Positions 26,119 through 59,566 are shown, counted from the first letter of the stretch. The stretch is DNA of 64,000 bases from Candidatus Omnitrophota bacterium (GCA_029261065.1 JAJDCB010000011.1:111168-175167); one strand, 5' to 3'. Numbers and translations are program-made. Notes: a model not told the origin generated them from the letters alone.

Positions 26119-26134
26119 GGTTTTAAATAATGCT

Positions 26135-28975: not shown

Positions 28976-29040
28976 AGGGAAGATGATAGCATAATGGGGC
29001 AGGGGTGGCGAGTAAAAATTAGAAAGTGAGGCAGGAATAA

Positions 29041-29402: not shown

Positions 29403-30494
29403 ATGATGAAAATTTTAAATATCACTGTTTATATATTTGTTGCAACATTTTTGTTTTCAAGTACTTACGATGTATCAGCTTTAGAGGAAAATCGTAGGAC
29501 CCCAGCGGATTTTCTTGTGGAGGTGGGCAAAACTGACCTTCAAAAGGGGAATATCCAGCAGGCCATTCATGAGTTTAGTAAGGCCCTTATGATGGACCCT
29601 CATCATAAGGAAGCCAAGCAGCTTTTAGTCCAATTTGGCATTGAAGATGGGCTGTATACTAAGCAAAAGACGCATTTAAGCCGCATTTCCGATATGGGTG
29701 ATCATATCCGCTCTTACCGCGCCAAACTAGAAGATTTAGAGCGTCAAAAGGCTGACCTTAAAAATCAATTTGCACGATTACAGGTTGAGCATTTTTCAAT
29801 TATCAGAGAAAATAAAAATAAAGACCTAGAGATTTCAAAGCTCAAAACCACAATCACCGCGATCCAAAAGACAGCCAATCATAATAAGGGTATTTATGAA
29901 GGCAAGGTCGGTCAAATGGATCAGGCAAACGAATATCATCGTGAAAGTCTGCTTGATATGCAGGAGGCGATGAACCAAGAAAAGGAAGCTGCATTAGCAC
30001 CGCTTGCTAATCATAGAAAATTGAAGCAAAATTATGAAGCATATCACGATAAATTCGATAAGAGTATTGAGTATTCTGCGTATTTAGAAGAGGAGTTATT
30101 AAGCCTTTCCGATAAATATCATTCCTTAAACAGTCAAATTTCTGATCAGTATGTTCATCAAGATAAACTGATTCATGTATTAGAAGATTATCTTAAGCTT
30201 CGTGAAGCAAGTTTAGACGATGCTTTGGATGAGGCGTTATATAAGCACGTTGATTTGACTCAGGCGGACAGTATGGTTTTAGCCAAATTAAATGAGCTTA
30301 TTGACTTACATGATGATGTGGATCAAAAACGAAATCGTATTGATGATCTTCATGATGATCTGATGATTAGTAAAGATATGATCTTGGATCGCAATAAGGA
30401 GATTAATGATTTACAAGAAGAAATACAAGGGGCGGATCATTATATTCAAATCCTCTTGGATGAGCAGCGCGAGAAGAGAGAAATGTTAGAATAA
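29403..30494 (+). CDS. Secreted or membrane-anchored coiled-coil protein (hypothetical)
   Basis: N-terminal signal/anchor MMKILNITVYIFVATFLFSSTYDVSALEE, a TPR-like segment, then a long heptad-rich region. Followed by an intrinsic terminator. Confidence 0.55.
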   Translation: MMKILNITVYIFVATFLFSSTYDVSALEENRRTPADFLVEVGKTDLQKGNIQQAIHEFSKALMMDPHHKEAKQLLVQFGIEDGLYTKQKTHLSRISDMGDHIRSYRAKLEDLERQKADLKNQFARLQVEHFSIIRENKNKDLEISKLKTTITAIQKTANHNKGIYEGKVGQMDQANEYHRESLLDMQEAMNQEKEAALAPLANHRKLKQNYEAYHDKFDKSIEYSAYLEEELLSLSDKYHSLNSQISDQYVHQDKLIHVLEDYLKLREASLDDALDEALYKHVDLTQADSMVLAKLNELIDLHDDVDQKRNRIDDLHDDLMISKDMILDRNKEINDLQEEIQGADHYIQILLDEQREKREMLE

Positions 30495-31077: not shown

Positions 31078-32802
31078 ATGAACCCAAAGGCCAATTCTCG
31101 GATTACGTTTCATTGGAATCTAAAATCTATTCTCGCCCTTTTAGTATTAATCTTTTCAGCGTTTTTATTGTATTTTCATACGCGTGATTTCAAATTAACT
31201 TATCTAGATGATAACGTTTGGATTCTTGATTATCATTGGTATTTAAAAGACATTAAAAACGTTCCCGCATTATTCACCAGTCCTGATTTTTTGTCAGGCG
31301 TTTTTTATCGCCCCATTCAAAACCTTTCTTTTATGCTTAATTCGTGGAGCACGGGACAAAACGTGGCTGCTTTTCGAATATCGAATATGGTTGTTCATTC
31401 CTTTAACATTTGTTTTATATTTTTAATTTTAAAAGCTATGAAGTATTCTTTAGAGGCTTGCTTTTGGGCAACACTTATTTTTTGTGTGCATCCGCTATTA
31501 ACCTCAGCTGTTGTATGGATTCCCGGTCGGACAGATGCTTTTTTGGCGTTCTTTGTATTATTGTCATTTTTATCTTTTTTGAAGTATCACAGCTCGAATC
31601 GTTTTCATTTTTTAATATGGCACATATTATGTTTTATTTTAGCTTTATTAACAAAAGAAACCGCTGTTGCGATTCCTGTAATGTCATTTTTGTATATTGC
31701 TTTTTTTTCAAAAGATAACATTAAACAAAAGCCCTATGTGTGGCTCTATTGTTGTTGGGCTCTTGTTATCGTAACTTTTCTCATTATTAGAGCTGTGATT
31801 CTTAAAGATTCTAGTGGTGTCAATGTGGCCGTTGCTTTTTCGTCAATGCTGTCCAATGCCCCTGCCATGATCTCTTATTTTGGAAAAGCTTTTCTGCCCG
31901 TCAATGTCTCAGTGCTTCCTATATTAAAAGATTTAACGTTAACATACGGTTTTATGGCTTTTGCTATTTGCGTCTGGGGTTTAAGTGTCTCCAAACGTAG
32001 ACGAACGTCCAATGTCCTCTATGGATTTTTATGGTTTCTGATTTTTTTAGCCCCATCCTTAGTGCTTAGTTTCTTGAAGCATGAATATAGGGTGTATATA
32101 CCTTTGTTTGGTTTGCTTCTTATTTTTTTGGAAATGGATTTATTTCGTTTTGATAACACCGTAGAGGATTCGAGTCAACGTAAAACGGTGGCTCGATTGA
32201 TTTGTGTGATTATTGTTGTTTGTTTTGCTGGGGTCACACTTACACATAGTCAACACTACAAAGACAGATTTGCGTTTTGGAATAATGCTGTTAAACATTC
32301 CCCTCATTCTCCTTTGGCCCAGCGTAACTTAGGGGCCATGTTATATTTAGAAGGGGATTTAATGCAGGCTGAGAAACATTTTCAAAAGGCGCTTGAGCTT
32401 AATCCTAAAGAACGAATGGCGCATAATAATTTGGGATTGATTTATGTGCAACAAAAACGATACAAGGATGCTGAGAGGGAATATAATTTAGAAATTAACA
32501 TAAATCCAACTTATGATAATGTATACTACAATTTAGGTCTGCTCTATTACTTTAATGGTCCGAAACAAAAGTCGAAAGAGCTTTGGCAAAAGGCTGTTGA
32601 ACTAAATCCCAAAAATGCGGGTGCTTATCTTAATTTGGCAAAGCTTGCGATGGAAGAAGGGCGTCTAAGGCAGGCTAAAGAATATTTAGATATTTTGCGT
32701 GAGAAGGGTGCGATTGGGGATGAGGAATATCAGAAGTATTTGCAGTTTATTGGACGTATAAAAAGTAATCGTGTCATCCCCGTGGAAGCGGGGAGCAAGT
32801 AA
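31078..32802 (+). CDS. TPR-containing GT-C family glycosyltransferase (TMTC / PMT_2-like O-mannosyltransferase homologue)
   Basis: N-terminal TM helix, then FKLTYLDDNVW...YRPIQNLSFMLNSW...NMVVHSFN, followed by ~10 TM helices and C-terminal TPRs (NLGAMLYLEGDLMQAEKHFQKALELNPK...). The C-terminal codons VIPVEAGSK are supplied by a REP-like element. Confidence 0.7.
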   Translation: MNPKANSRITFHWNLKSILALLVLIFSAFLLYFHTRDFKLTYLDDNVWILDYHWYLKDIKNVPALFTSPDFLSGVFYRPIQNLSFMLNSWSTGQNVAAFRISNMVVHSFNICFIFLILKAMKYSLEACFWATLIFCVHPLLTSAVVWIPGRTDAFLAFFVLLSFLSFLKYHSSNRFHFLIWHILCFILALLTKETAVAIPVMSFLYIAFFSKDNIKQKPYVWLYCCWALVIVTFLIIRAVILKDSSGVNVAVAFSSMLSNAPAMISYFGKAFLPVNVSVLPILKDLTLTYGFMAFAICVWGLSVSKRRRTSNVLYGFLWFLIFLAPSLVLSFLKHEYRVYIPLFGLLLIFLEMDLFRFDNTVEDSSQRKTVARLICVIIVVCFAGVTLTHSQHYKDRFAFWNNAVKHSPHSPLAQRNLGAMLYLEGDLMQAEKHFQKALELNPKERMAHNNLGLIYVQQKRYKDAEREYNLEININPTYDNVYYNLGLLYYFNGPKQKSKELWQKAVELNPKNAGAYLNLAKLAMEEGRLRQAKEYLDILREKGAIGDEEYQKYLQFIGRIKSNRVIPVEAGSK

Positions 32803-32845
32803 TAGTTGTTATCGTGCACGGGTCCCCGCTTTCGCGGGGATGACA
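32773..32845. repeat. REP-like palindromic doublet (copy 2)
   Basis: GTCATCCCCGTGGAAGCGGGGAGC ... GGGTCCCCGCTTTCGCGGGGATGAC. Overlaps the last 10 codons of the upstream gene and ends 14 nt before the next start. Confidence 0.7.
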
Positions 32846-32858
32846 TTACGATTAATTT

Positions 32859-34067
32859 ATGAAAACATATCATCCTCTTAAAAAATTTATATTTACCGTC
32901 GCAGCATTTTTTATGTTTGCGCTATTTATTTTTATTATCGCCGAAATTGCTTTTCGTATTTTTCGCGGCCCACCCAACCCTCTTTCAGAGATTACCCAAA
33001 AACATTCTTCTTTCCTTTTTCAACCTAATACTGTTATGGAAAAATCTTCATCTAAAGAAGGGGAGTTTAGTTATACAGCACGTATTAATAATTTTGGATT
33101 TCGTGGAGATAAGATAGCGCTTGAGAAAACACCGGGTAAGCTGCGTATTATGACCGTTGGTGATTCCTTCACGTTTGGTGTTGGGGCAGAAGATAATGAA
33201 ACGATTGCTACGGTTATTCAACAAAGACTGATGAATCAAGGCGTTGCTGTTGAGATGATTAATGCAGGTATTGGTCATGCCTCTCCGATAACTCATTATG
33301 TGAATCTACGTGATAACCATTTAAAATTAAAACCAGATGTTGTGATTCTTTTGTTGGATTTAACAGACCTTTGGGATGATTGGCATACGGAGCGTAATGC
33401 TGTTTATGACAGAGATGGTGATATTGTTCGTTTTGATCCGATGTTTATTAATGGTAAAAGGGATTGGTGGATTACAGCTATTCATCATAGTGCCTTTTGT
33501 AAATATATTCAGAATAAAGTTGTGCGTACATTTAAAAAAATAGGAGAGCTGGGATTTAAAAATTATTTTAAAGCGGTTGTTGAAGGAAAGAGAGCCAAGG
33601 CTGTCATTATTAATACAAAGAAAAATATCTCTCAAGAAGCACAGATTGAGTATGATGGATTATTGATGATGCGAGGGAAGGAAAAAAAAGATTTAATTGA
33701 AAAACATTGGGTACGCAGCGCTGGTTATTTAAAAAAGATTAAAGGGATGTTGGATGAGCGCAACATTCCTATGATTCTAGTAACTTATCCTCATGGAATT
33801 TATGTCGGAGCCGATGAGTGGGAAAAGGGTCGCGAGACATGGGGTTTTGAATTGGGAAAACGTTATACGGATTATTATCCATTTGAATTGGTTGCAAGTT
33901 TTGCAAAAAAAGAAGGAATTGCCTTTATAAATACCGTCGACAAATTTCCGATTAGTGAAGGACAAATATATTTCTATAATTGGGATGGGCATATGACACC
34001 TAAAGGATATCAAACAGTGGCTGAGGGTATTGTTTCAAACCATGTATTTAAAGATATTGTGAAATAA
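32859..34067 (+). CDS. Membrane-anchored SGNH/GDSL-family hydrolase
   Basis: N-terminal TM helix, then LRIMTVGDSFTFGVG, which is the GDS(L) block I of SGNH hydrolases. ~400 aa. Confidence 0.6.
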   Translation: MKTYHPLKKFIFTVAAFFMFALFIFIIAEIAFRIFRGPPNPLSEITQKHSSFLFQPNTVMEKSSSKEGEFSYTARINNFGFRGDKIALEKTPGKLRIMTVGDSFTFGVGAEDNETIATVIQQRLMNQGVAVEMINAGIGHASPITHYVNLRDNHLKLKPDVVILLLDLTDLWDDWHTERNAVYDRDGDIVRFDPMFINGKRDWWITAIHHSAFCKYIQNKVVRTFKKIGELGFKNYFKAVVEGKRAKAVIINTKKNISQEAQIEYDGLLMMRGKEKKDLIEKHWVRSAGYLKKIKGMLDERNIPMILVTYPHGIYVGADEWEKGRETWGFELGKRYTDYYPFELVASFAKKEGIAFINTVDKFPISEGQIYFYNWDGHMTPKGYQTVAEGIVSNHVFKDIVK

Positions 34068-34095
34068 GTTTGTATGATTTAAAAAGGGGGAAGAT

Positions 34096-34593
34096 ATGGC
34101 TAAAACGAACAGTATGTTTGTCACAATCGGTCTAATTATTTGTATGGTGTTATTTGCTGTTCTTCTGCGTGAAACAAAATTAAAAATTGCGGGAGATGAG
34201 TCGTTACGTGAAACGTATTTAGAAAAAATGCAGAGTTCGATGTTTCATGGAGGCGCTTGGCAAGAGTGGAGTGAGAAGGAGAAAAAAACTTATCTTTTTG
34301 GACTTGAGGATGGCGCATTGAATGTGGCTGCCTATTACAAATTATCATGGGATGAACGTAATCGCGCTGTTAAGTCTTTACCGAGTTTTGGCGCCGCCGT
34401 TAGTCGCGATATGCTCATCCAAACGCTGGATGATTTTTATTCTGACCCCAATAATATCAACGTCGCGATCCCCCATGCTGTATTAAGAATCACCAACCAA
34501 GTCCTGGGCATCGAGGATCCCTTAGAAGAAAAACAAAATACATATTTCAGCCAAGAATTACAAAAATTCCACGACAATCAAAAAAACCCTTAG
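34096..34593 (+). CDS. Hypothetical protein with an N-terminal transmembrane anchor
   Basis: MAKTNSMFVTIGLIICMVLFAVLLRE..., with an RBS-like GGGGGAAG upstream. No recognisable motif. Confidence 0.45.
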   Translation: MAKTNSMFVTIGLIICMVLFAVLLRETKLKIAGDESLRETYLEKMQSSMFHGGAWQEWSEKEKKTYLFGLEDGALNVAAYYKLSWDERNRAVKSLPSFGAAVSRDMLIQTLDDFYSDPNNINVAIPHAVLRITNQVLGIEDPLEEKQNTYFSQELQKFHDNQKNP

Positions 34594-34605
34594 GGTGAGT
34601 ATTTT

Positions 34606-36138
34606 TCATCCCCACCACCCCCGATCCAAACATCGATATTGAATCGCCTCGGCCATGTGATGCGGTTCGATGTTGGTTTTATGTTCCATATCAGCAATGG
34701 TCCGTGAAACTTTTAGGATTTTATCGTAAGAGCGCGCGGATAGCCCAAGTTCGTCGATTGCTTTTTTAAGAAGCTCTTTGCAATCCTGGCTAAGAGGGCA
34801 GGAGGTTTTGATTTGACGATGTGTCATATACGAGTTGGCATGAATCGTTGATCCTAAAAATCGTTGATGTTGTATCTCGCGGGTTTGTGTTGTGCGTTGT
34901 TTGATTTCTTTTGAACTTTCAGATTTTTGTTGTGACATGATTTGAAGCGATGGAAGAGAAGGGACTTCTAGATGGATATCAATTCTATCAAGGAGTGGCC
35001 CTGAAATTTTAGACATATATTTTTGAATTTGTTGCGGATGACATTGGCACTTTTTTTTAGGGTCGGTGTACCAACCACACGGACAAGGATTCATCGCACA
35101 GATCAACATAAAATGTGAGGGAAAGCGAACAGTCTTTGTGGCACGGGATATGGTGACATAGTGATCTTCGAGCGGTTGACGTAAGGCTTCTAAGACGTTG
35201 CGATTAAACTCGGGAAGTTCATCAAGAAAAAGAACACCGTTGTGACTTAAAGTGACCTCACCTGGTTTAGGATTGGATCGACCACCAACGATAGCAACAT
35301 CTGAGGTGGTGTGATGAGGCGAGCGAAAAGGTCTGTGGGTGAGCAATGATTCCCCCCTATTGAGTAATCCCATGACGGAATGAATTTTGGTTGTTTCAAG
35401 CGCCTCTTCTAAATTCATATCCGGCAAGATAGAGGGGATACGTTTAGCGAGCATGCTTTTGCCACTTCCAGGAGGACCGATGAGCAAGCAGTTGTGCGCG
35501 CCCGCCGCTGCAATCTCTAAACCACGTTTGACATGGCTTTGCCCTTTGACTTCACTAAAATCAATGTCTAGGGATTGTTTCTTTATAAGATAACTTGCCG
35601 TATCAACATCAACGGGTTTTATAGAATCGGAGTTATCTAAAAAGTAGACGACATCGTTAAGTGTTTTAACAGGATAAATATGGGTGTGATCAACGATCGC
35701 TGCTTCTTGAGCATTTTTATCTGGAAGGATAAGACCTTGAAATTTATCTTTGGGCATATTAAGCGCCACAGATAAAGCCCCGTTAATCGGTTGAATGCGT
35801 CCATCAAGAGAAAGTTCGCCAAGATAAACATATTGTCCCAAGGCCTGTGGATTGATTTGCTCCGTTGCCGCAAGCACTCCTAAAGCAATCGCTAAATCAA
35901 AAGACGGGCCTTCTTTTTTGGTATCAGCGGGAGATAAGTTGATTGTTATTCGCCGTGTTGGAAGTTTAAATCCTGTATTCTTAATGGCTGAACGCACGCG
36001 CTCCTTACTTTCTCGAATCGCACTATCTGGTAAACCGACAATAATAATTCCTGGCAAGCCACGCGAGACGTCGACTTCAATGACAACCTTAAAGGCATCT
36101 AATCCAGAAATTCCATATGAATATGTTTTGGCTAGCAT
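34606..36138 (-). CDS. comM: YifB/ComM family Mg-chelatase-like AAA+ ATPase
   Basis: N-terminal Lon-like MLAKTYSYGISGLDAFKVVIEVDVSRGLPGIIIVGLPDSAIRESKERVRSAI, Walker A LLIGPPGSGKSMLAKR and a C-terminal Mg-chelatase domain. Confidence 0.9.
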   Translation of the reverse strand: MLAKTYSYGISGLDAFKVVIEVDVSRGLPGIIIVGLPDSAIRESKERVRSAIKNTGFKLPTRRITINLSPADTKKEGPSFDLAIALGVLAATEQINPQALGQYVYLGELSLDGRIQPINGALSVALNMPKDKFQGLILPDKNAQEAAIVDHTHIYPVKTLNDVVYFLDNSDSIKPVDVDTASYLIKKQSLDIDFSEVKGQSHVKRGLEIAAAGAHNCLLIGPPGSGKSMLAKRIPSILPDMNLEEALETTKIHSVMGLLNRGESLLTHRPFRSPHHTTSDVAIVGGRSNPKPGEVTLSHNGVLFLDELPEFNRNVLEALRQPLEDHYVTISRATKTVRFPSHFMLICAMNPCPCGWYTDPKKKCQCHPQQIQKYMSKISGPLLDRIDIHLEVPSLPSLQIMSQQKSESSKEIKQRTTQTREIQHQRFLGSTIHANSYMTHRQIKTSCPLSQDCKELLKKAIDELGLSARSYDKILKVSRTIADMEHKTNIEPHHMAEAIQYRCLDRGWWG

Positions 36139-36548
36139 GATTTATCCTTTTTCTTGTTAGGTGTAAATCCAATAGGATTTTTTTGTTTAGAGGGAGGATC
36201 AATTAATCGTTTGATTGCATTAAAAACAATTCGTAATTGATGGCCGTATTTTTTCTCCATCGTTTTGATTTTGCGTCTTAAGTCTTTGTGCGTCGTCATT
36301 AATTCTCGAAGTTTAGTGAACGTTCGCATAATTTGGATATTGACCTGAATGGCTTGTGTGCTATTTAAGACACTAGAAAGCATTAAAATACCATGCTCCG
36401 TAAAGGCCAAGGGTAGTTTTCGAGTACCATCCCAACTTGATGTGCCAAAATGGCACTTCAAGTCTGTAAACTTAAATTTTAAGTTTCTCCTTGTGACAAT
36501 TGGAACACGAAGTCCACAAGGTATAGTTGTTTTTAAAAATTTAGGCAA
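36132..36548 (-). CDS. ORF6N-domain protein (phage/plasmid-associated; possibly N-terminally truncated)
   Basis: KLPLAFTEHGILMLSSVLNSTQAIQVNIQIMRTFTKLRE matches the ORF6N core (YAFTEQGVAMLSSVL...AVQVNI.IMRAF..LRE). The usual N-terminal IRGQKVMLD block is not evident. Confidence 0.45.
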   Translation of the reverse strand: MPKFLKTTIPCGLRVPIVTRRNLKFKFTDLKCHFGTSSWDGTRKLPLAFTEHGILMLSSVLNSTQAIQVNIQIMRTFTKLRELMTTHKDLRRKIKTMEKKYGHQLRIVFNAIKRLIDPPSKQKNPIGFTPNKKKDKSC

Positions 36549-36948
36549 AATGAATTTCTATGAGAATTTGTCTAGTTTTTTGGGAAGTATTTATAATTTG
36601 GGGAAATTTTTTTGGGGTAGGGGTATTCCGAATTGACTAAAGATAGCACACAATAGATTTTTGGTCAAGGATGGGATAAGTTTGACTTTGGAGTTTCTGG
36701 AGGGTGAGGTTATGAATGCCGTAAAAATTTGTGCTTTTTTCAGCCTGCAAAAGCCCTTGCATTTTTGAAGCTCAAGTTTATAATGTAGATTACTATTACG
36801 TCCTTGGAGGCTATCTGTGGGTCATTTGTTTTGAGGTTTTGAGTGTTGAAAACATTACGTTTACAACAAAAAATACCATAAAATAAAACATTTACGGATG
36901 GCAACTTATCGATACTAATCAATACCAAATACACGAAATGTCCCCAAA

Positions 36949-37392
36949 TTGAGCGATTTGCTGAATAACAAAATTTTGATAACTACCTTAGCTGTTTGGG
37001 CTATTGCACAGACCCTAAAGGTGGTATTGGGGGTATTTAGGGAAAAACGGTTTAATTTTAAATGGTTTATCGGGACTGGCGGGATGCCTTCCAGTCATGC
37101 GGCTGGTGCGACGGCGTTGGCAACGAGTTGTGGGCTTCATGAAGGGTTTGGATCTGTAGCTTTTGCGTTATCAACAGTTTTTGCTCTTGTTACAATGTTT
37201 GATGCTCAAGGGGTTAGGCGTTCAGCTGGTCAGCAAGCCGTCATCTTAAATCAAATATTAGATGATATGTATTGGAAAGGCAAGATTGAAGCAGAACGTT
37301 TGTTTGAATTGATAGGACATTCTCCTCTTCAGGTTATTGCTGGAGGTGTTTTAGGTGTTGTCTTGGCGGCATATTTTTTTCAAGTTTGGTAA
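36949..37392 (+). CDS. Divergent PAP2 / DUF212 family membrane protein (YuiD-like)
   Basis: TGGMPSSHAAGATALA is the DUF212 signature; the protein has 4 TM segments and is 147 aa. Confidence 0.7.
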   Translation: MSDLLNNKILITTLAVWAIAQTLKVVLGVFREKRFNFKWFIGTGGMPSSHAAGATALATSCGLHEGFGSVAFALSTVFALVTMFDAQGVRRSAGQQAVILNQILDDMYWKGKIEAERLFELIGHSPLQVIAGGVLGVVLAAYFFQVW

Positions 37393-37517
37393 TAAATTTT
37401 TTGTAATAAGAATTTTGAAGTCTATTATTTAGTTTTTTCAACAAAGTTAAAGAGGATCAATACGAAAACGGGGTTACCCTGTGATCATAATTACAAACTT
37501 AGCCAGGAGGGCGATAC

Positions 37518-38363
37518 GTGTTTAATTTAAGAAATATTATCATCGGGGCTGTTGGCATTGTATTAGTTGTTGTTATTTTAGTTGGTGTGGGACGTAATAA
37601 AGGATCGGAGAATGTCGTAACGGTTTCAGCAGATGATTCAACTTCTTCTAGCCAAGTTGACTCCACAGCACAACAACTGTTTGAGAAAGCAGAAAGCCTA
37701 AAGCGTGATAATAATCTTGTAGAGGCCAGAACACATTTCCAAGAAATTTCAAATGATTATCCTGATTTTGAAAATATTGAATATATAGAAAAAGAATTAG
37801 CGAAAATTAATATGAAAATTATTTTCTCTAATACGCCCACGGAAAAAGGAATTGTACATGAAGTTGTTTCTGGGGATACTTTAGGTAAGTTGGCTAAGAA
37901 ATATGGAACAACAATTGAGTTAATTAAAATTAGTAATCATCTTAAAAGTGATGTCATACGTTTAGGTGCAAAATTAAGAATTTGGACAGGGACATTTAAT
38001 ATCTACGTTGATAAATCGCAGAATATCCTTATTTTAAAAGATGAAGATAGTGTTGTTAAGGTTTATGATGTATCAACGGGAAAAAATAATAGTACGCCAG
38101 TTGGAGAATTTAAGATTACGACAAGGCTTATTGATCCTGTTTGGTTTAATCAAGGCGCTGTTGTTCCTGCCGAAAGCCCACAAAATGTATTAGGAACGCG
38201 TTGGTTAGGTTTTGATATACCTGGATATGGCATTCACGGTACGGTAGAACCTGGTACAATCGGTCAGCAAGTAACGGCGGGATGTGTCAGAATGAAGAAC
38301 GAGGATGTCGAGGAATTATATAGTATTATCCCTCTTAAAACTAAAGTTGTTATTACAGATTAA
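37518..38363 (+). CDS. LysM-domain L,D-transpeptidase (YkuD family)
   Basis: N-terminal TM anchor, the LysM block HEVVSGDTLGKLAKKYGTTIELIKISNHL, and the catalytic GYGIHGT...GCVRM (His/Cys) motif. Confidence 0.8.
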   Translation: MFNLRNIIIGAVGIVLVVVILVGVGRNKGSENVVTVSADDSTSSSQVDSTAQQLFEKAESLKRDNNLVEARTHFQEISNDYPDFENIEYIEKELAKINMKIIFSNTPTEKGIVHEVVSGDTLGKLAKKYGTTIELIKISNHLKSDVIRLGAKLRIWTGTFNIYVDKSQNILILKDEDSVVKVYDVSTGKNNSTPVGEFKITTRLIDPVWFNQGAVVPAESPQNVLGTRWLGFDIPGYGIHGTVEPGTIGQQVTAGCVRMKNEDVEELYSIIPLKTKVVITD

Positions 38364-38479
38364 CAAAGAGTTATGAGCTTAGAGTATGATGCTTTCAATA
38401 ACATTATTTTCTAAGTTTTTGCTCTTATTGACATTTTCTTTAATATAAGGAAATGACAAATAATGGGGTGGTTGTTGTG

Positions 38480-39430
38480 ATGTTAGAATTTGAAAAACCC
38501 ATATATGAATTAGAAGTTAAGATTGAAGAGCTTAGGAATTTTGGATCTGATAAAAATATTAAATTGGATCCGGAAATAAAGAAGCTTGAAGAAAAATTGG
38601 AAAAAATGAAGAGAGAGATTTATTCCAATCTTTCTACGTGGCAACGTGTGCAAATTGCACGTCATCCTGATAGGCCTTATACACTAGATTATGTCCGTTT
38701 GATTATGACAGATTTTGTGGAATTGCATGGCGATCGGCAATTTGCTGATGATCATGCTATGGTTGCTGGCTTTGCTAAGTTGGGTGATACGAAGGTTCTT
38801 GTTATTGGTCAGCAAAAGGGGCGTGATACCAAAGAATCTTTAGTGCGCAATTTCGGTTGTGCTCATCCTGAAGGTTATCGCAAGGCGATTCGGCTAATGC
38901 AGTTGGCTGAAAAGTTTCAACTTCCGGTTGTTATATTTATCGATACACCAGGCGCCTATCCAGGGATGGGGGCGGAGGAGCGAGGTCAGGCACAAGCGAT
39001 CGCAGAAAATTTAAAAGACATGGCGAACATTAGTGTCCCAATCGTTGCAACAGTAATTGGTGAGGGAGGAAGCGGTGGTGCATTAGGTATTGGCATTGCA
39101 GACCGTGTTTTTATTTTAGAACATGCGTATTATTCAGTCATTTCTCCCGAGGGCTGCGCATCCATTCTTTGGCGAAATGCTGTTAAGGCTCCTGAAGCAG
39201 CTGAAGTCTTAAAAATTACCTCAGAACATTTATTAAAATTTGGTATCGTTGAAGCAATCATTAAAGAACCTCTCGGTGGCGTTCACCATGATCCAGTCTC
39301 TTTATCCCATCAGTTAAAAGATGTTATTCTTAAAAATATTCAAGAACTTTCGAAATTACCAAAAGAAGAATTGTTAGAACAGCGTTACCAGAAGTTTCGA
39401 AAAGTAGGCGAATATATCGAAGAAGCATAA
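38480..39430 (+). CDS. accA: Acetyl-CoA carboxylase carboxyltransferase alpha subunit
   Basis: MLEFEKPIYELEVKIEELR aligns with the AccA N-terminus; FIDTPGAYPG and GEGGSGGAL motifs are present. The start is chosen at the internal ATG; the track ORF starts 27 nt upstream. Confidence 0.85.
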   Translation: MLEFEKPIYELEVKIEELRNFGSDKNIKLDPEIKKLEEKLEKMKREIYSNLSTWQRVQIARHPDRPYTLDYVRLIMTDFVELHGDRQFADDHAMVAGFAKLGDTKVLVIGQQKGRDTKESLVRNFGCAHPEGYRKAIRLMQLAEKFQLPVVIFIDTPGAYPGMGAEERGQAQAIAENLKDMANISVPIVATVIGEGGSGGALGIGIADRVFILEHAYYSVISPEGCASILWRNAVKAPEAAEVLKITSEHLLKFGIVEAIIKEPLGGVHHDPVSLSHQLKDVILKNIQELSKLPKEELLEQRYQKFRKVGEYIEEA

Positions 39431-39445
39431 ATAAAAAACGAAATT

Positions 39446-40480
39446 ATGACGACCATAAAAGATATTAGAGAATTATCTTATCCTGAGCTAGTGGACTATT
39501 GTTTATCCATCAATGAGCCTGATTACCGTGCTACTCAAATTTTTGAATGGATCTATCAAAAGAGTACTAGTTCTTTTGATGAGATGAGAAATTTATCAGA
39601 AACGTTAAAAAATCAATTAAATAAAGACTTTGTTTTTAAACCATTAGATATCGAGAAAAAAGAGGTGTCGGAAGATGGAACAACAAAGTTTTTATTTAAT
39701 TTAGATGATGGGCAACGTGTCGAAACGGTTTTGATTCCAGCGAAGACGAGAACAACAGTGTGCGTCTCAACCCAAGCAGGGTGTAAGTTTGGATGTAAGT
39801 TTTGTGCGAGTGGAATTGGAGGGTGGACGCGTAATTTAGCAACAGCGGAAATTTTAGCCCAGATATTGCATGTCAAAGAAGAGTCCCTTAAACATAAAAA
39901 GCCATTATCGCATGTAGTATTTATGGGGGTTGGTGAGCCGCTTGATAATTTTGATTATTTAATGAAAGCGATTAGAATGATTAATAATAAAAAGGCATTA
40001 AATATTGGTGCAAGACGGATAACAGTCTCGACATGTGGTGTTATTCCTAAGATTCATGATTTAGGAAAACAAGGATTGCAAATTGAACTCGCCATATCTT
40101 TACACGGATTTGATAATGATTCACGAAATGTTTTAATGCCCGTCAATAAAAAGTATCCTTTTAATGAATTGATGAAGGCTTGTCGTGAGTACATAAAATC
40201 TACTAAACGACAAATTACCTTCGAATATATCTTGATCAAGGATGTGACCTGTTCGAATGAAGCCGTTCAGTCATTAAAGAAGGCCTTTCAGGGGATGATT
40301 TGTAAAATGAACTTAATTCCTTACAACCCTGTAAAAGAGTTTGATCATCAGACACCTACGCGGCAAGAAATTTATCAGTTTAAAGATCAATTGGAAAAGT
40401 TTGGTGTGCATGCCACTGTGCGCATGCCAAGAGGGCGCGACATTTCAGGCGCTTGTGGGCAATTGCGACTTAGACAGTAA
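39446..40480 (+). CDS. rlmN: 23S rRNA/tRNA m2A methyltransferase RlmN (radical SAM)
   Basis: CVSTQAGCKFGCKFCASG carries the CxxxCxxC radical-SAM cluster plus an extra Cys, and MGVGEPLDN is present. 344 aa. Confidence 0.85.
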   Translation: MTTIKDIRELSYPELVDYCLSINEPDYRATQIFEWIYQKSTSSFDEMRNLSETLKNQLNKDFVFKPLDIEKKEVSEDGTTKFLFNLDDGQRVETVLIPAKTRTTVCVSTQAGCKFGCKFCASGIGGWTRNLATAEILAQILHVKEESLKHKKPLSHVVFMGVGEPLDNFDYLMKAIRMINNKKALNIGARRITVSTCGVIPKIHDLGKQGLQIELAISLHGFDNDSRNVLMPVNKKYPFNELMKACREYIKSTKRQITFEYILIKDVTCSNEAVQSLKKAFQGMICKMNLIPYNPVKEFDHQTPTRQEIYQFKDQLEKFGVHATVRMPRGRDISGACGQLRLRQ

Positions 40481-40569
40481 TTATCGAGGTATTCATCATT
40501 AATATATTTTTAGATAAGTTAAAAAGGATATCGGATAGTCCCGCTAAAAGTATAGGGGTTATCGTATTT

Positions 40570-42222
40570 TTGACACTTTGTGCCTTTGGTAATATTTATT
40601 TTAACGATTTTGTTTTAGATGATATCGACTTTATCGTTAACTGGCCTCTCATTCGCGATCTTCGAAATATTCCAAAATTTTTTATTGGATACACCCCACC
40701 TGTTGGACAAGAAGGCGTTTATTCTCCTCTTAAGACATTAATTCATGCCATTAATTACAATTTATTTAAAGAAAATCCTTTTGGATATCATGTTATTGCG
40801 ATTGCAATTCACCTTCTCGGGACGGTATTTGCTTACAAAATAATTTCCCTTTTAACAAAGAACAATTTAGTTTCCTTTTTAAGTGCATTATTTTTTGGAT
40901 TGCATCCTGTCCATGCTGGCGTCATCACAAACTTAACTGGCAGTGTTGATGCTGCTGGTATGGCATTTATGTTTATTGCTTTTTATTACTATATGCAAAC
41001 AAGCGCAGATACCTCTGCTTTTAAAGAAAAAAGTTATTGGAAGTCAATCGTGTTTGCTTTTTTAGCTGTCTATACGCATGAACTTGTTATCACATTGCCA
41101 TTGGTCATTTTTTGGTATGACTTGTGTTTTAAGAGATATAGAAAATCGGTAACTGAATGTGCGATTCGCGTGGCACCATTTTTCTTAATCGTTGGCACAT
41201 ATGTAATCGCCAAGTTTTTAAATTTCGGAACAATATTAAGAGGCGGGTATCTTTATGATAATTTTATATTAACGCAACTTGTTATTATTAAGGCGTTGTG
41301 GAAATATGTGATGATTTGTTTTTTTCCTTTCAAGTTAACGCATAATCATGTCATTTCACCAGGTATTTATTCGTTTTCATTCGATGATTTCGATAAAGCA
41401 TCCGTCTTATCACAGTCTTTTTTTGAATGGAAGGTTATATTATCCATATGTCTTTTGATTGGCCTGTTGTATTGGGCGATCAAATCTTGGAAGAAAAATC
41501 CTCTTATCACGTTTTCTATTGGGTGGTTTTATATATGTTTACTTCCGGTTTTACAACTTGTCCCTAGCGCCGTTTTGTTTGCTGAAAGATATTTATATCC
41601 TGGATCCATGACATTTTGTTTACTGTTAGCCTTATGTTTATCTAAGGGTTTGGAGCAAGCGAATAAGTCTATTAAGACGTTATCTGTGTTGTTTTTTATT
41701 TTTTGCGTTATTTTTTATTCGGGCAGAACATGGATGCGCAGTGCAGATTTTAAAGATGAGATCACCCTTTTTGAAACGGTTGTAAAAGCTAACCCCAAAA
41801 GTGCTCTTATGCGCACAGATTTAGGGGTGGTTTATACACGTTTCGAACAGAACCAAAAAGCCTTGAATAGTTTTCATGAAGCTCTTAAAATTCGTCAGGA
41901 CGATGCTGACATTTATTTTTTAATGTCAGAGCCATATATTCAGTTAAATGATCATGATAAAGCACGCGAAGCTTTATTAAAGGCGATTGAGTTAAATCCA
42001 GATTATGCGGATGCCTATTATAATTTAGCTGGTTTGTATGCCATGAGCGAAGAGGAGGACAAAGCTATGGCTGCAATTAATACATCCATGAATTTGTATC
42101 ACACCCAAGGGCGCGATCAAGAGGCAACGGAGTATCTAGCCGTTTTCTTAAATTATTTTTACCCCGAGCTTAACAAAGAGTTAATGGAAGGTTTAATTCA
42201 AGAAATGATAGAAAAACAATAG
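40570..42222 (+). CDS. Second TPR-containing GT-C glycosyltransferase (TMTC / PMT_2-like paralogue); start uncertain
   Basis: NDFVLDD...YSPL...YHVIAIAIH parallels the 31078 gene; multiple TMs; C-terminal TPRs (LGVVYTRFEQNQKALNSFHEALKIRQDD...). The expected N-terminal TM helix (SIGVIVFLTLCAFGNIYF) is encoded in-frame upstream of the TTG at 40570, but no ATG/GTG/TTG start precedes it before the in-frame TAA at 40516. Confidence 0.6.
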   Translation: MTLCAFGNIYFNDFVLDDIDFIVNWPLIRDLRNIPKFFIGYTPPVGQEGVYSPLKTLIHAINYNLFKENPFGYHVIAIAIHLLGTVFAYKIISLLTKNNLVSFLSALFFGLHPVHAGVITNLTGSVDAAGMAFMFIAFYYYMQTSADTSAFKEKSYWKSIVFAFLAVYTHELVITLPLVIFWYDLCFKRYRKSVTECAIRVAPFFLIVGTYVIAKFLNFGTILRGGYLYDNFILTQLVIIKALWKYVMICFFPFKLTHNHVISPGIYSFSFDDFDKASVLSQSFFEWKVILSICLLIGLLYWAIKSWKKNPLITFSIGWFYICLLPVLQLVPSAVLFAERYLYPGSMTFCLLLALCLSKGLEQANKSIKTLSVLFFIFCVIFYSGRTWMRSADFKDEITLFETVVKANPKSALMRTDLGVVYTRFEQNQKALNSFHEALKIRQDDADIYFLMSEPYIQLNDHDKAREALLKAIELNPDYADAYYNLAGLYAMSEEEDKAMAAINTSMNLYHTQGRDQEATEYLAVFLNYFYPELNKELMEGLIQEMIEKQ

Positions 42223-42235
42223 GCTGGAATCCATT

Positions 42236-42940
42236 ATGAAGTATTCTTTTCTCTTTCCTGTCTACAATGCCGAATCCCTTTTAAATAATACTTATCGTCA
42301 GATAAAAACGTTTGCTGATACGTTAGATCAAGACTATGAAATCATTTTTTGGGATGATGGAAGTCGTGATGAGTCAGTAAAGAAGTTAGCGGAGATATCA
42401 AAATTATCTAAATCTGTTTTTTTTGGTCGTAATGATCGAAATAGAGGATTAGGTTTCACATTAAGAAAGTTGTTTGACAAAGCGCAAGGTGAGATAGTCA
42501 TCTACTGTGATTGTGATTTGCCTTTTGGGATTGAAGGTATTGAAAAACTGATAGCTAAAATACCTTTAGCTGATATTGTTGTGGCTTCAAGGTATCAGTC
42601 TATTGGGCCTGAAGTCTCATGGATTCGACAAAGGTGTAGTCGCATGTATTATTTTCTAATGAAATGTTTGTTTGCTATTACGGTTAAAGACATCGGTTCT
42701 GGTACGGTGGCCTTTCGATCAGATGTTCTTAAGGGATTGAATCTCAGTCGAGATGGATTTGACATCCATACAGAAATTTTTGTTAAAGCTAGTGATAGAA
42801 AATTTCAAGTAATGGAGGTGGCAGCCCAATCATTTTCTCAAAAATATTCTACATTTAAGATTTTAAAACATGGACCGAAGGTGATATTATCTACGTTAAA
42901 ATTTTGGTTAGATAATAATAAAAAAGAAGTGACCGTTTGA
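42236..42940 (+). CDS. GT2 family glycosyltransferase (polyprenyl-phosphate sugar synthase; Dpm1/GtrB/ArnC-like)
   Basis: SFLFPVYNAE...IIFWDDGSRDES and the DxD motif IYCDCDLPF. 234 aa. Confidence 0.8.
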   Translation: MKYSFLFPVYNAESLLNNTYRQIKTFADTLDQDYEIIFWDDGSRDESVKKLAEISKLSKSVFFGRNDRNRGLGFTLRKLFDKAQGEIVIYCDCDLPFGIEGIEKLIAKIPLADIVVASRYQSIGPEVSWIRQRCSRMYYFLMKCLFAITVKDIGSGTVAFRSDVLKGLNLSRDGFDIHTEIFVKASDRKFQVMEVAAQSFSQKYSTFKILKHGPKVILSTLKFWLDNNKKEVTV

Positions 42941-42965
42941 AGTTGAGTTTGGGGTAAGTTATTTA

Positions 42966-43514
42966 CTACTGCATGGTCGCTTGGATTTGGTTCATGAGTT
43001 GTTTAAGCTTTGGATTTTGCATGAGTTTTTGAACCTTAGCATTGCCTTCCAAACGTGAGGGATCGTAACTTAGTAAATCGCTCATGAGTTCTTGATCAGC
43101 TAGAAGAGCCGCAATTTCAGGATCGCTAAGCAGGGTTTGAATTTGATCCATGAATTGAGGGTTGCTTAAGATGGATCCCTGCAATTGCTGAATCTGTGAT
43201 TCAAATTCAGAATTACCCCCAGCCCCTCCTAAGGCACTTAGTCCGCCAAATCCACTTAAAAGAGAGCTATTACTACCAGATAATGAGGATGCTGCACTAT
43301 TTGTGACATTAATGCTGACAATGTTGGAATCATCAACGGAGAGTTCTCCTAAATTTTTTGTTTTAATCGTATATTGACCATTTCCAAATCCAACGACCTC
43401 TCCCTTGATGACTGTACCGTCTTTAAGGGTGATCGTTTTTTGCGTCTCGGCATAGGCTGGGTTGCCTAGGATTAGGATGAGTGAAAGTATGAGAAAGGGT
43501 GTTCTAATTTTCAT
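42966..43514 (-). CDS. Secreted hypothetical protein with a Gly/Ser-rich linker and an STI1/DP-like C-terminal repeat
   Basis: Signal peptide MKIRTPFLILSLILILGNPAYA-ET. NPQFMDQIQTLLSDPEIAALLADQ...NPKLKQLMNQIQ resembles STI1 (Hop DP) repeats. Confidence 0.45.
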   Translation of the reverse strand: MKIRTPFLILSLILILGNPAYAETQKTITLKDGTVIKGEVVGFGNGQYTIKTKNLGELSVDDSNIVSINVTNSAASSLSGSNSSLLSGFGGLSALGGAGGNSEFESQIQQLQGSILSNPQFMDQIQTLLSDPEIAALLADQELMSDLLSYDPSRLEGNAKVQKLMQNPKLKQLMNQIQATMQ

Positions 43515-43570
43515 AGTATAAGTGTACTTTATAACACCATTGGCGTCAATGCCAGGGGAGCTAAATATGT

Positions 43571-45049
43571 CTATTTCTTGGTTAGTCGGTAAAGGTTGTT
43601 GGTATATATAAGATTATGATATGCCCCTTTGTACCATCCTTCTGAGATTTGTTCTCCGACATAATTCAGATTGTAGTGTTCTTTAACAAAATTGGAAAAT
43701 TTGTGTTCGAGATCATAAGAACTTAAACTGAGTGCCGTGATATATACAGGTATGTTTGACTCAAGGTTTTCATCAACACTTTTTTTAAAGTCATCAAGCA
43801 TATGCTCCTTTATAGTATATGCAAGAGGACGGCCAAGGACAGCACGGTTACCATAATAACTATAGAATTTAGAATTGTCCGTTATGATTATTTTAGCATT
43901 TTCTTCAGTTGAGTCAGTTACCCAACGGACAAATTCTGGAAGAATAGCATTTTGGTTACGAATATACAAAATAGGATGCGCGCTTGAAAAGAGATATAAG
44001 AAAATGGCAAGGTAACATACGTAGGCAGGTAACTTTGTAAAAAAAGAAAATTCAGTCATTTTTTTGTAAAACATTCCTTGTGCTATGAACAAGGGGGGGA
44101 GAATGATAGCTAAGAAACGGGGGGCAGAGGTGATAAGGTTTCCATAAAAGAGAAGGGGAACGATTGTCCAAAGCAATAAGAATAGAGATAATTTATAATT
44201 GGTTTTAAAAAGAATGATAAATCCAAGACATGAAAAGATTAATCCAACAAGAGTTGTCGTCTCAGTTAAATAGGTTAGTGAGATGAATAAAATAGGTGAT
44301 AAGAAGCCCATAAAGTTTTGTTTCAATCCTGATTCCCAAAATGTAGAGAATTGTCCGTAGAACAAGTTTCGCGATTTAGTTAAAAGATAGGGGGCATGAA
44401 ATAGAGCAGCAATAACAAAAGCGATGGCAAAGAATTGCAGGAGATGTTTCCAATGTATTTTGTCTTTTTTAAGAAGCAAGAAAAGTGAGGCTAACGGAAT
44501 GATCATCAAAATCATATCTTGTACGCGAGCCGCCCCCATTAAACCGAAAAAAATACTACCCCAAAGCAGAAGACGTTTGTTTCTATTTTCAAAGTAATAA
44601 ATCAAACAAAGGATGCACAAAAAAAGCAAAAACAAACTGGGTGTATGGCTTTTTCCGTAAACGGATAATCCAAGAAAGATGGGTGAGATAGAGAATGTGA
44701 CAGCGCCAAGGAGAGCAGAAAAGGGGTCTGATAGTTTTTTGGCGATGAAATAAAAAAGAGGAATACTTAAGGCGCTTAAAACGACACTCATAAGATTTAC
44801 ACTAAAGACAGGGTCATCAATAGAAAAAAGACGTGTTAGAAAAATAAAAAATGAACCGAGAATAACGGTTAAAGGGTAACCAGGTCCGAAAAGATAGTGA
44901 AGTTGAAAGGTGTCTAATGTTTTCTCGGCATTAATGGCTAAATTGAGACAGTCAAGATGGAAGGGGCCTTTACTTATGAGATGAAGGCGGAGTAGGAGGC
45001 TTAAAAAAAATAGAATAAATGGAATCGTATATTTTTTAAGTGATGTCAT
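43571..45049 (-). CDS. Polytopic membrane protein, probable GT-C glycosyltransferase (ArnT/PMT GT39/GT83-like)
   Basis: 492 aa with more than 10 TM helices. The N-terminal LLRLHLISKGPFHLDCLNLAINAEKT lies where ArnT/PMT enzymes carry the DE(A) loop. The assignment rests on topology plus genomic context next to the GT2 gene. Confidence 0.5.
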   Translation of the reverse strand: MTSLKKYTIPFILFFLSLLLRLHLISKGPFHLDCLNLAINAEKTLDTFQLHYLFGPGYPLTVILGSFFIFLTRLFSIDDPVFSVNLMSVVLSALSIPLFYFIAKKLSDPFSALLGAVTFSISPIFLGLSVYGKSHTPSLFLLFLCILCLIYYFENRNKRLLLWGSIFFGLMGAARVQDMILMIIPLASLFLLLKKDKIHWKHLLQFFAIAFVIAALFHAPYLLTKSRNLFYGQFSTFWESGLKQNFMGFLSPILFISLTYLTETTTLVGLIFSCLGFIILFKTNYKLSLFLLLWTIVPLLFYGNLITSAPRFLAIILPPLFIAQGMFYKKMTEFSFFTKLPAYVCYLAIFLYLFSSAHPILYIRNQNAILPEFVRWVTDSTEENAKIIITDNSKFYSYYGNRAVLGRPLAYTIKEHMLDDFKKSVDENLESNIPVYITALSLSSYDLEHKFSNFVKEHYNLNYVGEQISEGWYKGAYHNLIYTNNLYRLTKK

Positions 45050-45068: not shown

Positions 45069-45155
45069 TGGTGCTGGAGGAGGGAATCGAACCCTCATGG
45101 CCTTGCGACCGCTGGATTTTGAATCCAGTGCGTCTACCAATTTCACCACTCCAGC
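45069..45155 (-). tRNA. tRNA-Leu (anticodon CAA), class II with long variable arm, CCA encoded
   Basis: The reverse complement reads GCTGGAGTGGTGAAATTGGTAGACGCACTGGATTCAAAATCCAGCGGTCGCAAGGCCATGAGGGTTCGATTCCCTCCTCCAGCACCA. It has a 7-bp acceptor stem, anticodon loop UUCAAAA, T-loop GGTTCGATTCC, and is 87 nt long. Confidence 0.85.
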
Positions 45156-45330: not shown

Positions 45331-45585
45331 TTATTGTAAAGGATGCAACAACCTCTTTTTAAGAAATGCAAACCCAGAACCAGATTTCAAATATCTTTCC
45401 AAATCAGCTGCTAATTTTTTATTCTTAAGAGCAATATACGTTTCAATCTCCCAGGGAGAGTAGCGTTTGCTAAAAATTACTTTATTACTGTTGTGTTCTT
45501 TTATACGTTTTTCTAAATCTTGAGTGAATCCAATATAAATTTGTCCGGTTTGTTTTAAGCTTTTTAGAATGTAAACGTAGTACAT
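45331..45585 (-). CDS. GIY-YIG nuclease superfamily protein (small, stand-alone)
   Basis: MYYVYILKSLKQTGQIYIGFTQDLEKRIKEHN carries the GIY...YIG motifs and the conserved R and E. Shortened from the 105-aa track ORF to the ATG preceding YVYIL. Confidence 0.7.
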   Translation of the reverse strand: MYYVYILKSLKQTGQIYIGFTQDLEKRIKEHNSNKVIFSKRYSPWEIETYIALKNKKLAADLERYLKSGSGFAFLKKRLLHPLQ

Positions 45586-45672
45586 TTTTGCCTTTTTGAT
45601 GTAATTTGTAAAGGGGCAATGTAATACGCGTAATTTTTGATAGAGCAACTAGCTTATTTTTGTTCAAATAGA

Positions 45673-46075
45673 GCAAGAGCTCTTCTACGTTCCAATACTT
45701 TCGTGTTGGAACTACGAAGAAGCATTCTCTACGCTCAAATTATTAAATTAGAAGGACTTGTTTCTTCGAAGCTGAAACATATGCGTGCAATGCGTAACCT
45801 TAATATTCGCAAGAGCTCTTCTACGTTCCAATACTTTCGTGTTGGAACTACGAAGAAGCATTCTCTACGCTCAAATTACTAAATTAGAAGGACTTGTTTC
45901 TTCGAAGCTGAAACATATGCGTGCAATGCGTAACCTTAATATTCGCAAGAGTTCTTCTACGTTCCAATACTTTCGTGTTGGAACTACGAAGAAGCATTCT
46001 CTACGCTCAAATTACTAAATTAGAAGGACTTGTTTCTTCGAAGCTCAAACACGGAAGTATTTGAGCGTAGAAGAA
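45673..46075. repeat. Tandem repeat, ~136-bp unit x ~3 copies, abutting the 3' end of tRNA-Ala
   Basis: Units start at 45673, 45809 and 45945 with GCAAGAGCTCTTCTACGTTCCAATACTTTCGTGTTGGAACTACGAAGAAGCATTCTCTACGCTCAAATTACTAAATTAGAAGGACTTGTTTCTTCGAAGCTGAAACATATGCGTGCAATGCGTAACCTTAATATTC. Each unit carries a GTTCCAA...TTGGAAC hairpin. The last unit diverges into CTTCGAAGCTCAAACACGGAAGTATTTGAGCG, which also occurs in inverted pairs at 45190-45305. Confidence 0.8.
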
Positions 46076-46148
46076 TGGACCCGAGGGGGTTCGAACCCCT
46101 GACTTCTACAATGCCATTGTAGCACTCTCCCAACTGAGCTACGGGCCC
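46076..46148 (-). tRNA. tRNA-Ala (anticodon GGC), CCA not encoded
   Basis: The reverse complement reads GGGCCCGTAGCTCAGTTGGGAGAGTGCTACAATGGCATTGTAGAAGTCAGGGGTTCGAACCCCCTCGGGTCCA. It has the G3:U70 Ala identity pair, anticodon loop AUGGCAU and T-loop GGTTCGAAC. Confidence 0.8.
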
Positions 46149-46252
46149 AAATAAAGTCTTTTTTTTTGCAGCATATATCCGAATGATGGATCAATATATC
46201 ATCGCCGCTAGTTCTTGTCAACTTTATCAGGGGTGGTGGTGATATGCTAATC

Positions 46253-48653: not shown

Positions 48654-48662
48654 AATTGATTT

Positions 48663-49802: not shown

Positions 49803-49829
49803 TAAAAGGGAAGTAATTTCCAAGTTACA

Positions 49830-51454: not shown

Positions 51455-51466
51455 CCGGTTTGTTAT

Positions 51467-57750: not shown

Positions 57751-57852
57751 ATCTTGTCGTAATTTTGCCATTTCGACTCTTCGGCCGGAATGACAGGTCG
57801 CACCGTTTGACAGATACATTCGCAATCCCTTTAGAGCTGGAATATAACACAT

Positions 57853-59559: not shown

Positions 59560-59566
59560 AGGCATT

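Follow-up and report, generated by a model that had tools for sequence, protein, structure and literature searches.

A conserved gene module of Candidatus Omnitrophota linking a TMTC-like enzyme with a Dpm1-like glycosyltransferase: a candidate system of envelope glycosylation

A 14-kb stretch in the genome of a Candidatus Omnitrophota bacterium raises the question of whether the glycosyltransferase genes located in it constitute a single glycosylation system, and which of the neighboring genes belong to such a system. The stretch (positions 31078–45049) is part of a window of 64,000 nucleotides (GCA_029261065.1, JAJDCB010000011.1:111168-175167), i.e., the whole DNA analyzed here, in which all positions are counted; the initial annotation had regarded it as one eukaryote-like toolkit for O-mannosylation. 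The genes concerned are designated here by letters. Genes A (31078–32802, + strand, 574 aa) and D (40498/40570–42222, +) encode TMTC-like membrane glycosyltransferases of the C fold (GT-C) with tetratricopeptide repeats (TPRs); B (32859–34067, +) encodes a GDSL hydrolase and is followed by C (34096–34593, +); E (42236–42940, +), beginning 13 nt past D, encodes a short glycosyltransferase of family 2 (GT2) of 234 aa; F (42966–43514, −) encodes a secreted protein of 182 aa; and G (43571–45049, −) encodes a further GT-C enzyme. The five genes originally named (A, B, D, E, and G) are all real, and each has the domain type proposed for it. According to the synteny analysis, however, the stretch is not a single toolkit but consists of a conserved D-E-F-G module, an orphan paralogue (A), and unrelated neighbors.

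Gene linkage was assessed in two samples, 31 genome loci around D-family genes and 80 metagenome loci of the A family (111 in total), against which all proteins of the window were searched. The neighbors of D were counted in the 22 loci in which the D orthologue was ≥43% identical and the sequence continued downstream for 800 nt or more. An E orthologue was located on the same strand within 400 nt of D in 21 of these 22 loci, F within 6 kb in 16, and G within 8 kb in 10, with two tandem copies of G in three of them. The D-E pair was kept in six loci without the rlmN flank, and the genes were still found together in shuffled orders, namely, E-D-F (locus L021), F-D-E (L017), D-E-D′-D″ (L008), and D-E-D′-F (L016), whereas five more distant D paralogues (32–42% identity) had no E. 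These three observations argue for a real linkage.

The same pairing recurs in the A family, in which a separate GT2 gene was present no more than ~260 nt upstream in 11 of the 80 loci and within ~2 kb in four more. The products of these genes were ~244 aa in size, lacked membrane helices, and were 20–26% identical to E. In locus L079 (7308–9587), one uninterrupted open reading frame (ORF) combined a Dpm1-like GT2 with an A-type GT-C-TPR enzyme, giving a protein of ~758 aa from the first Met, and the best matches of its GT2 part were again DPMS, ArnC, and GtrB. This fusion is the strongest single argument for placing the GT2 and the TPR-containing GT-C enzyme in one pathway, and it also fits a cytoplasmic N-terminus of the GT-C enzyme. 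The logic initially proposed, in which a lipid-linked donor synthase serves GT-C enzymes bearing TPRs, is supported for D-E(-F)-G, with the D-E counts, the GT2 genes of the A family, and the L079 fusion in its favor.

The product of gene E, which had been described as a GT2 of the polyprenyl-phosphate sugar synthase type, agrees with that description. It matched Glycos_transf_2 (PF00535) with 80 bits and contained no membrane helix. Its top five relatives in the PDB were DPMS, ArnC, and GtrB proteins (E-values from 2e-15 to 4e-12), the best being Pyrococcus DPMS (5mlz, 2e-15), and the DDGS and DCD motifs of E aligned with DDDS and DAD of DPMS, which bind the nucleotide and the metal. All of these best solved relatives use polyprenyl phosphate as the acceptor, and E is probably a polyprenyl-phosphate sugar synthase as well. 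The E orthologues were mostly 226–245 aa long; two longer called ORFs (270 and 320 aa) matched within a similar span, and C-terminal membrane helices of the GtrB/ArnC type were found in none of the orthologues. Compared with the NCBIfam equivalogs, E scored 60 bits against a cut-off of 529 for ArnC, 54.5 against 500 for PgfS (the second-best match), and 22.7 against 370 for PpgS.

The D protein consists of a membrane domain of ~390 aa with the motifs F..LDD and YSPL, followed by C-terminal TPRs; multiple TPR Pfam models matched residues ~390–545 of both A and D above their cut-offs. It should be noted that the start of D was probably misplaced in public gene calls, whose 550-aa product is a truncated protein. 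The reading frame is open from 40474 and contains no ATG, GTG, or TTG before 40570; with the TTG at 40570 as the start, the first membrane helix is largely lost, and the N-termini of the homologues align with 24 residues upstream of it. Since a GAGG sequence (40486–40489) also lies 8 nt ahead of an ATT codon at 40498, the true start is probably this non-canonical codon or one near it. Invariant in the D family were D42, P77, K79, T80, H136, P137, E195, E363, R364, and Y365, while D41 was present in at least 90% of sequences. The AlphaFold2 (AF2) model of D (predicted local distance difference test (pLDDT) 90, predicted template modeling score (pTM) 0.86) showed helical repeats from about residue 420, and its list of helices fits 11 membrane helices if the helix at 256–275 is taken as a juxtamembrane helix of a long loop. 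Hydropathy and a positive-inside count applied to the same helices gave nine membrane helices, and this simple count did not fix the orientation. In locus L008 (10001–15651), three tandem D-type genes were arranged around one E.

The relation of D to known families was established at the level of profiles. The membrane domain of D alone had zero Pfam matches at E ≤ 10, and its hidden Markov model (HMM) retrieved nothing from the PDB sequences at the same threshold. Alignment of the membrane profile of the D family with a TMTC3-like protein of a horseshoe crab (P0230) using hhalign gave a probability of 99.2% (E = 1.3e-19, 360 columns), with the DD, Y(S/R)P, HP.H.E, (H/K)E, and AER.LY motifs in register, and a phmmer match had an E-value of 6e-24. 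The D membrane domain is therefore homologous to that of the animal TMTC proteins. Acidic residues of the first loop are invariant in all three GT-C families of the stretch (D42 in D, D44/D45 in A, and D33 in G), and those of D and A align with the FDD motif of TMTC3. All human TMTCs match DUF1736 (PF08409) at E < 1e-30, except for the canonical isoform of TMTC1 (3e-19) (PMC7801869), and in the TMTC scheme of 11 membrane helices with a cytoplasmic N-terminus and extracytoplasmic TPRs, the DUF1736 loop lies between transmembrane helices TM7 and TM8 (PMC7801869). Neither the A nor the D membrane domain, searched alone, matched DUF1736 at E ≤ 10, and the position of the TMTC DW motif is occupied by NH in D and is absent in A. 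Because this defining loop and the DW motif were not detectable, A and D are called TMTC-like here rather than members of TMTC. A MIR domain was found in neither protein; with regard to the PMT and PMT_2 models, A fell just below the cut-offs and D had no match.

Gene G encodes a GT-C enzyme, judging from both Pfam and the predicted fold, in agreement with its original description as a polytopic GT-C candidate. It exceeded the cut-offs of PMT_2 (PF13231; 40.3 bits vs. 26.1) and TMEM260-like (PF11028; 41.3 bits vs. 24.2). For its AF2 model (pLDDT 91.3, pTM 0.90), the top Foldseek matches were STT3/AglB/PglB (E = 4e-10, TM-score ~0.62), followed by ArnT (6e-8), ALG9/12, DPY19, and Pmt4, while the G-family HMM retrieved nothing meaningful from the PDB sequences. 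The C-terminus of G forms a mixed alpha/beta domain of ~110 aa (residues 386–491); Pfam returned no TPR match in G, and a C-terminal TPR-like domain of the TMEM260 type is not present. The D-family profile without its TPRs was aligned with the G family over 307 columns (hhalign 92%, E = 6e-7), with D42 of D facing the invariant D33 of G. Assignment of the polytopic proteins to transporter families had been named beforehand as the result that would speak against the glycosyltransferase interpretation; the profile searches yielded no such assignment. Two tandem G-type genes were found in three genomes (L019, L020, and L023, at ~13200–16400). The tandem copies of D in L008 and of G in these genomes suggest diversified acceptor specificity around one donor synthase.

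According to the family alignment, the secreted protein F begins with a signal peptide, which is followed by a small beta domain (ITLKDGS..KG.V....G.Y.I.T..LG); a variable linker of low complexity then leads to a helical C-terminus that is conserved. At E ≤ 1e-10, the family comprises 557 cluster representatives, nearly all of them 160–200 aa long. The C-terminus weakly resembles the DP domain of STI1/Hop and the STI1 domains of SGT2/ubiquilin; since the Pfam score (24.6 bits for STI1-HOP_DP) is below the cut-off of 29.1 and the PDB E-values are 0.2–0.5, this likeness is only suggestive. The linker of F contains on average 0.20 Ser + Thr compared with 0.13 elsewhere, a modest enrichment that varies among orthologues and therefore lends weak support to F as a Ser/Thr-rich acceptor. 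F could be either an adaptor or an acceptor in the periplasm. A more far-reaching idea, which we consider unlikely, is that D-E-F is a bacterial counterpart of the O-mannosylation of unfolded proteins in the endoplasmic reticulum (ER), in which F, with its STI1/DP-like domain for client binding, would hold secreted proteins that are unfolded or disordered and dock on the TPRs of D, and D would tag these clients with the sugar from the lipid-linked donor supplied by E. If this were true, D-E-F would be a glycosylation-coupled pathway of periplasmic quality control or maturation, perhaps for the very large surface proteins that are characteristic of Omnitrophota. In this connection, a protein of 5,347 aa (P0307) contains 14 copies of the N-terminal beta domain of F (F residues 24–78); this domain thus also occurs as a repeated module in proteins of very large size.

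Gene A differs from D in its genomic context. Its product carries C-terminal TPRs (TPR_1/2, ~64 bits), an F-x5-DD motif at residues 38–45, and YRPI at 77–80, and it remained slightly below the cut-offs of PMT_2 (23.8–24.9 bits vs. 26.1) and PMT (21.7 bits vs. 22.7). A and D could be aligned over their full length (23% identity, E = 3e-21), and the profiles of the two families matched over 499 columns, the whole membrane domain included (hhalign 100%, E = 4e-51), although the A family lacks a loop segment of ~30 residues present in D. The two proteins are, on these profiles, distant paralogues. Their common layout had been noticed initially, and its motifs, F..DD and the Y[RS]P loop, coincide with the most conserved positions of both families; the invariant residues of the A family were D44, D45, Y77, R78, P79, H138, P139, K193, and E194. 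The A family is much larger than that of D, with at least 545 metagenomic relatives, and an identical A protein is also present in the Logan assembly of SRR15505515. In the window, A has no GT2 of its own. No A orthologue was found near D in the 31 D-family loci, and only in L009 did an A-like gene (26% identity) occupy the position of A upstream of comM. Among the 80 A-family loci, A had no conserved neighbors other than mutL-mutS-TPR363, which were present in L033 only. A is an orphan paralogue; most likely, it takes its sugar from the donor pool used by D and G and transfers it to other acceptors.

Between A-B-C and D-G lie 6 kb of conserved housekeeping genes (34606–40480), namely, comM, DUF212, ykuD, accA, and rlmN. 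This intervening block and the absence of A orthologues near D in the sampled loci contradict the view of a single 14-kb toolkit. Gene B had been proposed as a membrane-anchored GDSL hydrolase acting in the system. The first part of this proposal stands, since B has an N-terminal hydrophobic anchor, a VGDSFTFG motif, and a marginal pass for Lipase_GDSL_2 (PF13472; 34.2 bits vs. 32.9, residues 100–181 only), with 7ddy as the nearest PDB entry (E = 7e-5); its membership in the system does not, as homologues of B, like those of C, were absent from the 2,219 ORFs of the 111 related loci (phmmer, E < 0.01). A, B, and C are co-oriented with gaps of 29–57 nt and may be co-transcribed in this genome. 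A functional connection had also been suggested with the giant ORF (7,791 aa; 30–23405, +), but mutL (24301–26229, −) and mutS (26372–29248, −) lie between on the other strand, and the few recognizable modules of the giant protein are of cytoplasmic type: a GT1 domain of the GT-B fold (residues 1708–1874), TPRs (~920–1000), HEAT repeats, and His_Phos_1 (about residue 4,700). A search of the giant ORF revealed no cadherin or IPT domain, which are the targets of TMTC and TMEM260, and no sign of an extracytoplasmic glycoprotein; it is consistent with the multi-enzyme class that recent preprints describe among the giant proteins of Omnitrophota. On the evidence of the loci compared, B, C, and the giant gene are neighbors and not components.

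The interpretation we favor, with moderate confidence, is that D-E-F-G (40498–45049) is a conserved envelope-glycosylation module of Omnitrophota operating by the standard bacterial three-step scheme. By homology with DPMS, Ppm1, GtrB, and ArnC, E would work on the cytoplasmic side of the inner membrane, loading polyprenyl phosphate with a single sugar taken from a nucleotide sugar; E is probably held at the membrane by an amphipathic C-terminus or by D, the two activities being joined in a single polypeptide in one relative. The lipid-linked sugar would then be flipped to the periplasmic face, and D and G would transfer it to periplasmic acceptors. By analogy with TMTC1-4 and TMEM260, the TPRs of D probably select protein acceptors, which would result in O-glycosylation of Ser/Thr. 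G, with an alpha/beta domain in place of TPRs, probably acts on another acceptor or extends the first sugar. Precedents for this scheme are Ppm1 with Pmt (PMC5882110), GtrB with PgtC2 and the Pgf system (PMC12041528), and TMTC and TMEM260 (PMC7801869, PMC10214176).

Several points weigh against this interpretation. The E sequence gives no indication of the identity of the sugar, because it is far below every NCBIfam equivalog cut-off. No GtrA- or ArnEF-like flippase gene was found in the cluster, the small ORFs giving only the GIY-YIG nuclease (45331–45648) and otherwise no matches, nor were nucleotide-sugar genes, the genes downstream being those of biotin synthesis, mnmA, and a pgi-like gene. 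The TPRs of D are predicted to be periplasmic from the way the protein aligns with the TMTC model of 11 helices. In many loci, synteny extends over the whole stretch from comM to the biotin genes, and part of the D-E-F-G synteny is therefore phylogenetic inertia. In the literature searched, there was no biochemical work on bacterial members of the A, D, F, or G families, and likewise no experimental study of bacterial TPR-GT-C proteins or of this Omnitrophota cluster.

The principal competing explanation retains the same chemistry of donor and GT-C enzymes but assumes non-protein acceptors, such as lipid A or the lipopolysaccharide core, peptidoglycan, or a surface polysaccharide, decorated in the manner of ArnC/ArnT or GtrB/GtrX, with TPRs docking onto envelope machinery and not onto client proteins. 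It derives support from the labeling of G as ArnT-family or GT39 by various sources and the presence of ArnT among the structural matches of G, from ArnC enzymes being the second-best relatives of E, and from syntenic neighbors that include envelope genes, namely, the YkuD L,D-transpeptidase and the PAP2-like DUF212; moreover, TPRs occur in the polysaccharide export proteins BcsC and PgaA, although their matches were only weak. The closest characterized sequence homologues of D, however, are the TMTCs, which are protein O-mannosyltransferases, E and G are below the ArnC and ArnT equivalog thresholds, and no sugar-modifying genes of the ArnA/B/D type are located nearby. Taken together, non-protein acceptors appear possible but doubtful.

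The original proposal of one eukaryote-like O-mannosylation toolkit covering 31078–45049, which would comprise A as well as the SGNH hydrolase in the role of a glycan O-acyl enzyme and be connected with the giant protein, is improbable: the reality of its named genes, their domains as proposed, and the possible co-transcription of A-B-C agree with it, but synteny largely refutes it. B and C lack homologues in the loci compared, A orthologues are never near D elsewhere, the conserved housekeeping genes intervene, mutL and mutS precede A on the opposite strand, and the giant gene has domains of cytoplasmic type only. The term “eukaryote-like” is likewise unsuitable, as these families are abundant in bacteria, with hundreds of members, and DUF1736 is unmatched in A and D. 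It is very improbable that D, E, F, and G are neighbors by descent only, belonging to unrelated pathways in a slowly rearranging lineage; the flanking housekeeping genes are indeed syntenic in many loci in the same way, yet D-E is maintained where the flanks differ and where the order is shuffled, and the A family and the fused ORF show the same pairing.

To our knowledge, TMTC-type enzymes are functionally known only from animals, where they O-mannosylate cadherins and where their defects lead to disease. Their bacterial relatives are numerous and uncharacterized. In Omnitrophota, the TMTC-like enzyme is almost always encoded beside a Dpm1-like donor synthase and once fused with one, and the four genes D-E-F-G thus form a compact, testable unit with which a TMTC-like reaction could be reconstituted in a heterologous host, and a compact prokaryotic model for enzymes of the TMTC type. 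The named homologues of A, D, and G were nearly all labeled Candidatus Omnitrophica/Omnitrophota (candidate division OP3), and the data suggest that this phylum, which is uncultured and possibly host-dependent, has glycosylation of proteins or of the envelope among its core traits. No concept is overturned, since the scheme of donor synthase and GT-C enzyme is already established in bacteria, and the A, D, and G families have already been annotated automatically as TPR proteins, GT39, ArnT-like, or “protein O-mannosyl-transferase”. What is new is that D, E, F, and G are tightly linked in Omnitrophota, that a GT2 is fused with a TMTC-like enzyme, and that a secreted STI1-like protein is conserved along with them.

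The remaining features of the window are as follows. A TPR/coiled-coil protein (29403–30494, +) is encoded between mutS and A. The block separating C from D contains comM (Mg-chelatase-like; 34606–36138, −), an ORF6N fragment of 138 aa (36132–36548, −) that partially matches ORF6N (KilA-N-like; 27.7 bits), shares 7 nt with the 5′ end of comM, and may be a mobile-element remnant, DUF212 (PAP2-like; 36949–37392, +), the LysM-YkuD gene ykuD for an L,D-transpeptidase (37518–38363, +), accA (38453–39430, +), and rlmN (39446–40480, +). G is followed by tRNA-Leu(CAA) (45069–45155, −), a GIY-YIG nuclease ORF (45331–45648, −), and tRNA-Ala(GGC) (46075–46149, −); homologues of the GIY-YIG ORF occupied the same place in L007 and L031 and were also present in L032 and L099. 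From 46483 onward, a nifS-like gene, birA, and biotin genes are found on the + strand. The biotin cluster (47700–53506) is compact, including birA, a bioF-like aminotransferase, a bioH-like hydrolase, a bioC-like methyltransferase, and a fused bioD-bioA (679 aa). Four consecutive ORFs of 256, 162, 345, and 199 aa at 56980–60166 had no Pfam match at E ≤ 1e-5. A scan for promoters and terminators gave counts at the level of shuffled sequence and was uninformative.

The module shares features with several known systems. The ArnC/ArnT system, which modifies lipid A with aminoarabinose, likewise combines a GT2 polyprenyl-phosphate transferase with a GT-C transferase; however, no ArnA/B/D/E/F genes are present here, and ArnT lacks the TPRs found in D and A. 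Actinobacterial Ppm1 and Pmt (GT39; PMC5882110) are similar in that a polyprenyl-phosphate sugar synthase acts together with an extracytoplasmic GT-C enzyme modifying secreted proteins. Pmt, however, belongs to the PMT/GT39 family, whereas A only grazes those models below the cut-off, D does not match them, and both have TPRs. As in E, membrane helices are absent from the catalytic domain of Ppm1, which is anchored through a membrane partner, in M. tuberculosis by fusion.

The streptococcal GtrB/PgtC2 and Pgf (PgfS/PgfM1/PgfE/PgfM2) systems combine, as here, a GtrB-type undecaprenyl-phosphate sugar synthase with GT-C enzymes, and they O-glycosylate Ser/Thr-rich disordered regions of extracytoplasmic proteins, a chaperone included (PMC12041528, PMC5856776). 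Pgf also resembles the module in having two GT-C enzymes in one operon. Unlike E, GtrB and PgfS carry C-terminal membrane helices, the streptococcal GT-C enzymes are without TPRs, and these systems belong to another phylum with another envelope type. Human TMEM260 (PF11028; PMC10214176) shares with G its N-terminal GT-C module, which G matches with residues 48–197 above the cut-off, while its C-terminus is a TPR-like luminal domain of ~300 aa in contrast to the alpha/beta domain of ~110 aa in G. TMTC1-4 (GT105; PMC7801869) have, like A and D, a GT-C membrane domain followed by C-terminal TPRs, and, as proposed for the module, their donor is a lipid-phosphate sugar supplied by a Dpm1-type GT2. 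The animal proteins are ~850–950 aa in size, whereas A and D are ~550–575 aa with fewer TPRs; and while TMTC1-4 act in the ER, A and D would act in the bacterial periplasm, with the donor synthase encoded next door or fused to the enzyme.

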